From: a virus
Lineage: Duplodnaviria; Heunggongvirae; Uroviricota; Caudoviricetes
IMG/VR virus record: IMGVR_UViG_2529293061_000007
Reading direction: 5' to 3' (one strand)
Length of the DNA: 35,846 nucleotides
This document shows positions 25,095 through 26,573 of this stretch, in pieces. The first letter of the stretch is position 1. The number at the start of each line of letters is the position of its first letter. The notes beneath the pieces are model-generated. The model was not told the origin of the DNA, made no database searches, and was given only the letters and a program-made list of their open reading frames with translations. A program made the translations under genes and the position numbers.

Positions 25095-26573
25095 CACCAT
25101 TCCGTCGAATACACTGGTTCCGTTGTTTTATGCGGAAATGGATAACCAGGCGGCGAATACTGCACAGGACAGCGGAGCATCGCTGCTGATTGGTCATGCC
25201 AATAACGGTGCAGAGATTGTTGCCAACAGTCTGGTGCTGATGCCGTCGGCAGACTATGCACGCCAGATTTGTGGTGCGGGAAGTCAGCTGGCGCGTATGG
25301 TTGAGGCTTATCGCCAGACCGACCCGTTTGGCGAGTTGTATGTGATTGCCGTTCCTGAATCCACGGGCGCGGCGGCAACGGTTACGCTGACGGTGACAGG
25401 GGCGGCAACCGAAACCGGCACGGTGAATGTTTATGTGGGACGTGCCCGCGTGCAGGCACCGGTGACCAATGGCGATAACGTCGCGACGATTGCCAGCAGT
25501 ATCCAGGATGCCATCAATGCCGTTCCGACCCTGCCGTTTACGGCCTCATCTTCGGCAGGCGTGGTCACACTGACCGCGCGTCATAAGGGGCTTTGCGGGA
25601 ATGAAATTCCTGTCAGCCTCAATTACTACGGCTTTGGTGGGGGCGAAGTGCTGCCAGCGGGCGTACAGATTGCTGTGGCGACGGGTACCGCCGGAACGGG
25701 CGCTCCGGTTCTCACCGGTGCGGTGGCTGCAATGGCGGATGAGCCGTTTGATTATATCGGTCTGCCGTTCAACGACACGGCCTCCGTTAACACGCTGGTG
25801 ACCGAGATGAACGATACCAGCGGTCGCTGGAGCTATGCGCGTCAGCTGTATGGTCATGTGTATACGGCAAAGACCGGCACGCTGTCAGAACTGGTGACCG
25901 CAGGTGACCAGTTTAACCAGCAGCACATTACCCTGGCGGGATACGAAAAAGAAACCCAGACACCTGCCGACGAGCTGGCGGCAAGCCGTACCGCCCGCGC
26001 AGCGGTGTTTATCCGCAACGATCCGGCACGTCCCACGCAGACCGGTGAGCTGGTGGGTATGCTGCCTGCGCCGAAGGGGAAACTGTTCACGATGACAGAA
26101 CAACAGACCCTGCTGTCTCATGGCGTGGCAACGGCGTATGTCGAAAGTGGGGTACTGCGCATTCAGCGTGATGTCACCACGTACAGGAAAAACGCTTACG
26201 GGGTTGCGGATAACAGCTACCTCGACAGCGAGACGCTGCATACCAGTGCGTATGTACTGCGCAAACTGAAATCCGTCATTACCAGTAAGTACGGGCGTCA
26301 CAAGCTTGCCAGCGACGGTACCCGCTTTGGTCCCGGTCAGGCGATTGTCACCCAGGCGGTGATCAAAGGGGAACTGCTGGCAACCTACCGTCAGCTTGAG
26401 CGTGCGGGATCGTGGAAAACTACGAACTGTTTAAGCAGTACCTGGTTGTGGAGCGTGATGCCAGCGATCCGAACCGCCTGAACACGCTGTTCCCGCCTGA
26501 CTATGTTAACCAGTTGCGTGTCTTTGCCGTGGTTAACCAGTTCCGTCTTCAGTATTCAGAGGAGTCTGCATAA
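25078..26573 (+). CDS. contractile tail sheath protein (Mu gpL-like), interrupted by an apparent 1-nt frameshift near 26406
   Basis: Track ORF ends at 26481 with a junk-like tail; the adjacent frame from about 26400 gives ...IVENYELFKQYLVVERDASDPNRLNTLFPPDYVNQLRVFAVVNQFRLQYSEESA and ends TAATG-coupled to the tube gene. Confidence 0.8.

Follow-up and report, generated by a model that had tools for sequence, protein, structure and literature searches.

The sheath protein gp39 of phage Mu is composed of an N-arm, the domains I to III and a C-arm, and the Mu tail contains about 180 sheath subunits arranged in 30 hexameric rings (PMC11915804). The C-arm joins the N-arm of a neighbour within its own ring as well as two domain-I strands of the adjacent ring, and the resulting four-stranded 'handshake' sheet links the rings of the sheath and is kept through contraction (PMC11915804). 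Furthermore, the same augmentation onto the wedge protein gp46 starts sheath assembly and docks the first ring on the baseplate (PMC11915804), and equivalent strands make the handshake in the sheaths of type VI secretion systems (T6SS; PMC5807055). Closely related to the locus analyzed here are the phages SfI, SfII, SfIV and SfV, in which the same sheath gene (orf11 in SfV, described as 'similar to phage Mu GpL') is found with 96.6-97.9% nucleotide identity. In SfI and SfV this gene also occupies the same position between the genes for a DUF2635 protein and the tail tube, and its stop codon overlaps the tube start in the same manner.

The DNA analyzed here (35,846 nt), called the window in the following, forms the end of contig APZD01000007.1 (GCA_000358935.2), which is indicated by the coordinates and the 100% identity of the records L008 and L028. 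It begins in proA, followed by a tRNA-Thr gene (CGU; 1369-1444, plus strand), which according to an Rfam scan and the comparison with relatives represents the attachment site at the left end of the prophage; the Rfam scan of the whole window gave nothing besides this tRNA. The integrase (1459-2622, minus strand) shares 98.7% identity over 387 aa with its SfI counterpart, and the excisionase shares 94.0% with that of SfI. The early region is CPS-53-like (yfdP to yfdT), and the lysis genes come next. With SfI proteins as tblastn queries, the rest of the morphogenesis module could be located from terS to a Mu gp48-like baseplate wedge gene (17388..34853, plus strand), in which 21 SfI morphogenesis proteins are matched at full length, with 93-100% identity, without gaps and in the same order. 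The sheath gene is the sole morphogenesis gene between terS and the gp48-like gene that is spread over two frames. Both of its neighbours are intact. The upstream DUF2635 gene (Mu gp38-like; 24924..25094, plus strand) overlaps the sheath start, and the downstream tail tube gene (26573..26929, plus strand; Pfam Tail_tube) encodes 118 aa with 100% identity to the SfI tube protein and has its own Shine-Dalgarno sequence, AGGAG at 26560-26564, eight bases before the ATG. This gene order of DUF2635, sheath and tube is the same as in SfI, SfV and many E. coli prophages. A scan for promoters and terminators around the sheath gene gave nothing above shuffle expectation.

The frameshifted sheath ORF extends from 25078 to 26481 on the plus strand and encodes 467 aa, i.e. 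444 native and 23 out-of-frame residues, followed by TGA. In the ORF reading of the window, its product ends with ...ERAGSWKTTNCLSSTWLWSVMPAIRTA, or in a longer form with ...LERAGSWKTTNCLSSTWLWSVMPAIRTA, directly before the stop. Over the first 444 aa, the identity to the SfI sheath is 99.1%. The alignment with an E. coli relative, SfI and SfV revealed that exactly one G of a GGGG run is missing in the window, which leaves GGG at 26406..26408 (plus strand) as the site of a 1-nt deletion. The ancestral GGGG corresponds to nt 1329-1332 of the 1497-nt sheath gene and thus to codons 443-445. Residues 1-444 remain native, GGA and GGG both coding for Gly444, whereas the native residues 445-498 (n=54) are lost from the product of the window and are replaced by the out-of-frame tail SWKTTNCLSSTWLWSVMPAIRTA (26410..26481, plus strand). 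The premature TGA at 26479-26481 sits 91 nt upstream of the tube start codon. The coding information for residues 445-498 is still present as an orphaned segment in the native frame (26409..26573, plus strand), which was recognized by Pfam and tblastn and is listed as a 53-aa ORF starting with GTG (26412..26573; translation ENYELFKQYLVVERDASDPNRLNTLFPPDYVNQLRVFAVVNQFRLQYSEESA up to the stop). This segment has no nucleotide difference from the intact allele, and SfI sheath residues 443-498 used as tblastn query match 26403-26570 in frame 3 with 98.2% identity. Its TAA (26571-26573) overlaps the tube ATG (26573-26575). Judged from the sequence, the split is a direct difference from all intact homologues and does not depend on a statistical signal. 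These results agree with an earlier note on this DNA, which had identified a sheath gene followed by a tube gene (both now recognized by their Pfam domains and SfI matches) and had described an odd tail on a sheath ORF ending at 26481, which consists of the 23 out-of-frame residues ending in ERAGSWKTTNCLSSTWLWSVMPAIRTA. The note had further proposed that the adjacent frame holds the C-terminus and stops in overlap with the tube start, seen here as TAATG at 26571-26575, and that one additional G in 26406-26408 restores a single ORF; insertion of this G in silico indeed gave a single sheath ORF of 498 aa.

The domain composition locates the damage precisely at the C-terminal domain. In the window ORF, three sheath families were detected above the Pfam gathering scores and in the expected order, namely Phage_sheath_domII at 95-196 (119.6 bits), Phage_sheath_1 at 206-368 (44.5 bits) and a partial Phage_sheath_1C (32.8 bits), which covers only the profile positions 2-59 of 104. 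The orphan frame (26412..26570) carries the profile positions 61-104 of Phage_sheath_1C, a domain located at residues 377-489 of the intact protein. The window ORF hence does not encode the complete C-terminal domain with its C-terminal arm. The closest solved structure, the Mu gp39 sheath (PDB 9khy), aligns with residues 3-490 of the intact allele (E = 8e-79), and the lost segment, or the C-terminal 50 residues, is well conserved in this alignment. The region missing from the window copy corresponds to approximately residues 449-495 of the Mu protein, the C-arm included.

An intact sheath gene was consistently found in the relatives compared at this site. The three coding sequences inspected, from SfI, SfV and the E. 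coli relative, have GGGG and a single 1497-nt sheath CDS, and all 12 matching phage records align over 1499 nt compared to 1498 nt in the window; the E. coli matches listed are likewise one base longer than the window query. Among the 988 RefSeq complete E. coli records (980 genomes) that carry the respective 65-nt stretch, not a single one matches the GGG version exactly, and the best matches among those listed are one base longer. Moreover, a 39-mer spanning the deletion gave no match in the GTDB species-representative genomes. The earlier note had named homologues sharing the same split as evidence against a defect; among the phages, the complete E. coli genomes and GTDB, none was found outside the clone.

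The 39-mer has one match in IMG/VR, which is CP024288.1 (L005, also L020; IMGVR_UViG_2897375277_000001, 19,118 bp), a fragment of a related prophage with many homopolymer deletions. Compared to the window it shows 95 gaps in 7.3 kb, 27 of them inside the sheath gene. We rejected this record as a relative sharing the GGG allele and regard the match as a coincidental error in a gap-ridden sequence. Low-quality records of this type can mislead searches for exact matches.

The repaired 498-aa protein exists verbatim in a collection of 15 billion proteins (P0016), where it was found on contigs from other samples (L023, L025 and L026). Over 13-20 kb, the identity of these contigs to the window amounts to 99.96%, their sheath gene is free of mismatches, and the missing G is the only indel. 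The sheath gene has the features of a frameshift pseudogene, i.e. uninterrupted orthologues, repair by one base and a lesion present on 15 contigs. We therefore favour, with a probability of approximately 0.88, the reading that the sequence records a recent, clone-specific deletion of one nucleotide in the sheath gene of an SfI/SfV-like prophage in the ETEC clone P0302308, and that it represents ordinary prophage decay. By the comparison of these contigs and assemblies, the deletion appears to be fixed in the clone and very recent.

[quoted passage not shown] The exact 467-aa product occurs on 15 contigs, including those of three or more further assemblies from sister colonies. The carriers are, among others, GCA_000357605.2, GCA_000358935.2 and GCA_000357765.2, with APZA01, APZD01 and APZE01 among the GenBank assemblies. 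A Logan re-assembly of run SRR446978, made independently, likewise yielded the product, and GenBank lists the 467-aa protein under E. coli P0302308.1 and P0302308.4, with four or more accessions. These carriers of GGG all come from the isolates of one patient and from one sequencing and assembly pipeline. Nevertheless, the sister assemblies differ among themselves at a few positions and are therefore independent assemblies, all of them with GGG.

Some other small differences were noticed in these drafts. The window assembly has six private substitutions (22082, 24784, 27830, 28339, 33721 and 34377), all of them G>T or A>C when set against the sister isolates that cover the site and against all other relatives used. 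Missense changes result from five of them, namely T144P in the tail terminator, G164V and Q334K in the tape measure, D168Y in baseplate J and T37P in the gp48-like protein. From their pattern, the six substitutions are probably read or library-damage errors in the draft. In the sister assembly L006, one C is missing at 27186, and we regard this difference as assembly noise. Hence, the drafts are not error-free. A further difference concerns an intergenic C-run at 22919-22922, between the stop of the major capsid gene (22895) and the next small gene, which reads CCCC in the window, its sister isolates and the contigs L023, L025 and L026, and CCCCC in JE86-ST02 (L004) and L024. By its distribution, this C-run is a harmless lineage polymorphism.

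At the far end of the window, the fibre ORF (34857..35336, 159 aa) starts with a collar-type N-terminal part, then goes out of frame near 35290 and runs into a gp53-like C-terminal cassette (35236..35517). A Pin crossover site (TCGAAAACCTTGGTTTGGGAGAAG) lies at approximately 35137-35160, and close E. coli relatives carry a pinE-invertible fibre segment where the gtrABC cassette for O-antigen modification would sit; the contig stops at 35846 within the fibre region. In the region 35591-35846, the alignment with the near-identical prophage L023 runs in reverse orientation, which means that the window carries the invertible segment in flipped form. The 159-aa fibre product was found on one contig only, at the contig end (35846) and within the Pin-invertible segment, and for these reasons the fibre junction was set aside as a second tail lesion; its sequence context makes an effect of orientation or assembly more likely than a replicated lesion.

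The strongest rival explanation assumes that the strain truly has GGGG and an intact 498-aa sheath and that base-calling or the building of the consensus dropped one G. It has to be taken seriously, because homopolymer length errors are the commonest indel artefact, and the change from GGGG to GGG is also present in two error-riddled records, L016 and L020 (= L005, CP024288.1). The six damage-type substitutions of the window assembly and the indel of L006 at 27186 point in the same direction. However, the deletion is present on 15 contigs, which include several separately sequenced sister colonies and the Logan re-assembly, whereas the private substitutions of each assembly are not common to the others. 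The sister assembly L007 differs from L023, L025 and L026 by no mismatch and one gap in 6.9-7.4 kb. This recurrence in sister assemblies, together with a difference of one gap and zero substitutions, makes a one-off assembly error very unlikely. A systematic error that depends on the sequence context is contradicted by the fact that the same local sequence gives GGGG when it comes from other samples, as in three Logan contigs and one GenBank contig without flanking mismatches. The platform also speaks against an artefact, because Illumina HiSeq seldom miscounts runs of 3-4 bases. Finally, the idea of a homopolymer-noisy window assembly was rejected, since only two indels separate the window from the 98.8% identical JE86-ST02 across 11404-35272, i.e. 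over 24 kb; the second of them, the C5 to C4 change at 22919, is intergenic and common to prophages with an intact sheath. All in all, we regard an artefact as quite unlikely. The earlier note had left the choice between an assembly error and an inactivating mutation; the frameshift recurs on 15 contigs and appears to be real, and the option of an assembly error has become improbable.

If the deletion is real, the following consequences can be expected for the prophage, which derives from a temperate phage with an HK97-type head and a Mu-type contractile tail. The change from GGGG to GGG would make translation depart from the native frame after Gly444, add the 23 unrelated residues and terminate 91 nt before the tube gene. 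The product would lack its last 54 residues, so that the distal half of the C-terminal domain would be missing together with the C-terminal arm; the loss of residues 445-498 would thereby remove the handshake arm and part of the inner domain. In Mu, the C-arm holds the sheath together, and therefore sheath assembly should fail without these residues. A truncated sheath would probably neither nucleate on the baseplate nor polymerise, so that no contractile tail would be formed and the particles produced upon induction would be non-infectious. By analogy with Mu we infer that sheath assembly and infectivity are lost, and the same structural comparison strongly suggests a defective tail and hence a defective prophage. 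The genes for integration, regulation, lysis, head and baseplate appear intact, and excision, replication, lysis and the formation of heads would still be expected. A strong polar effect on the tube gene is not expected, because this gene has its own AGGAG. The deletion would accordingly be the first step of ordinary prophage decay ('grounding') and not a regulatory device.

Such a defect could be masked in trans, if a second SfV/Mu-type prophage supplied a compatible sheath and infectious particles were still made. The E. coli genomes with this gene hold up to four copies, and a second copy would probably be compatible, because the sheath genes in the family are 97-99% identical. However, the median copy number is one, no second copy was found in the P0302308 contigs retrieved, and both prophages would need to be induced together. 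We consider complementation in trans very unlikely.

Alternatively, the deletion could be compensated in cis, either by -1 slippage that restores the full sheath or by reassembly of the 444-aa and 53-aa pieces. A -1 slip in the P-site from GGA to GGG (G_GGA, 26406-26409) would indeed keep the anticodon pairing and land in the native frame, and the downstream frame offers the GTG at 26412 and an intact half of the C-terminal domain. Nevertheless, several findings contradict this possibility. Neither the 12 phage records nor the 988 E. coli records contain a homologue with the two-frame arrangement, and therefore no recoding signal can have been selected. The sequence GCG_GGA_TCG does not form an X_XXY_YYZ heptamer, and the fold of the downstream RNA is unremarkable (z = -1.41; 16 of 200 shuffles fold equally well). 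A programmed -1 frameshift at the sheath site was rejected on these grounds, i.e. the missing heptamer, the unremarkable fold and the absence of a conserved split among the homologues. Slippage without a stimulating signal would be expected far too seldom to supply the approximately 180 copies needed per tail. With regard to a two-chain sheath, the GTG at 26412 has no Shine-Dalgarno sequence at a usable spacing, and the N-terminal fragment ends in 23 foreign residues where the chain should enter domain I. Compensation in cis is hence highly improbable. It is barely credible that the truncated allele is kept as useful, either as a dominant-negative poison subunit that would cap or block the sheaths of superinfecting SfV/Mu-type phages or as a throttle in which -1 slippage at G_GGA would let full-length sheath be made only rarely. 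This idea draws on the untouched N-terminal 444 residues and promoter context, and a very young neutral lesion would explain just as well why the allele shows no divergence from the intact form.

Sheath lesions also occur elsewhere in this prophage family. Gene calls of the 53-aa orphan ORF exist for many other genomes, in which the upstream sheath gene is broken in different ways. Deletions of 1 nt were found at nt 1232 (L013) and nt 1076 (L017) of the sheath gene, an internal deletion of 512 nt in L014, and a large deletion fusing terL to the 3' end of the sheath gene in L019. Two independent assemblies (L018 and L021) show a truncated sheath ORF of 438 aa without any indel relative to the intact gene, which presumably reflects a nonsense substitution. 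Several further cases of broken sheath genes are error-laden assemblies. The variety of lesions in other lineages indicates that prophages of this family repeatedly decay by sheath inactivation.

The favoured reading, a recent deletion in the sheath gene, is an event of a known kind, namely ordinary prophage decay without a new mechanism. It implies that in an ETEC clone from a Bangladeshi patient an SfI/SfV-like prophage has probably just lost the ability to build its tail. If so, the prophage should no longer spread horizontally from the P0302308 lineage. For annotation, the gene should be treated as a pseudogene instead of a 467-aa 'sheath family protein' and a small hypothetical ORF, and programs that judge the completeness of prophages from gene content would wrongly score the element as intact. 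Furthermore, the near-identical pairs formed by P0302308 with L023, L025 and L026 would offer a clean natural control for the need of the sheath C-arm, a need that is already well established structurally.

Among the known systems, SfI matches the window prophage in its integrase (98.7%) and in the tRNA-Thr attachment site. However, the early region of SfI is lambda-like, whereas that of the window prophage resembles CPS-53 (yfdP to yfdT), and the SfI type has gtr genes at the fibre end, where the window prophage has a Pin-invertible segment. SfI and SfV encode one sheath protein of 498 aa, whereas the window has one G fewer and encodes 444 native plus 23 foreign residues. The Mu protein gp39 (gpL; PDB 9khy/9ki1/9lj8; J Virol 2025, PMC11915804) is homologous over essentially the full length; its sequence is divergent from that of the window sheath, domain III being particularly variable, and the window copy is without the C-arm. 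A likeness also exists to the G/GT-type chaperone frameshift of lambda, which likewise involves two overlapping frames of tail genes. A genuine example is located 600 nt downstream of the sheath site, where a chaperone pair in two frames consists of 26929..27198 (89 aa) and a -1 frame ORF (27165..27347), with the canonical slippery T_TTT_TTC at 27180-27186 and an extended chaperone frame that ends in overlap with the tape-measure start at 27340. This two-frame layout with its canonical heptamer is present in the relatives examined, whereas the sheath split has neither the heptamer nor such conservation. No difference in kind exists to the frameshift and nonsense pseudogenes of decaying ('grounded') prophages in E. 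coli, in which likewise a single small lesion hits a gene essential for the virion while the prophage is intact in other respects; the case in the window is set apart just by its youth, as it shows no further difference from the intact allele.
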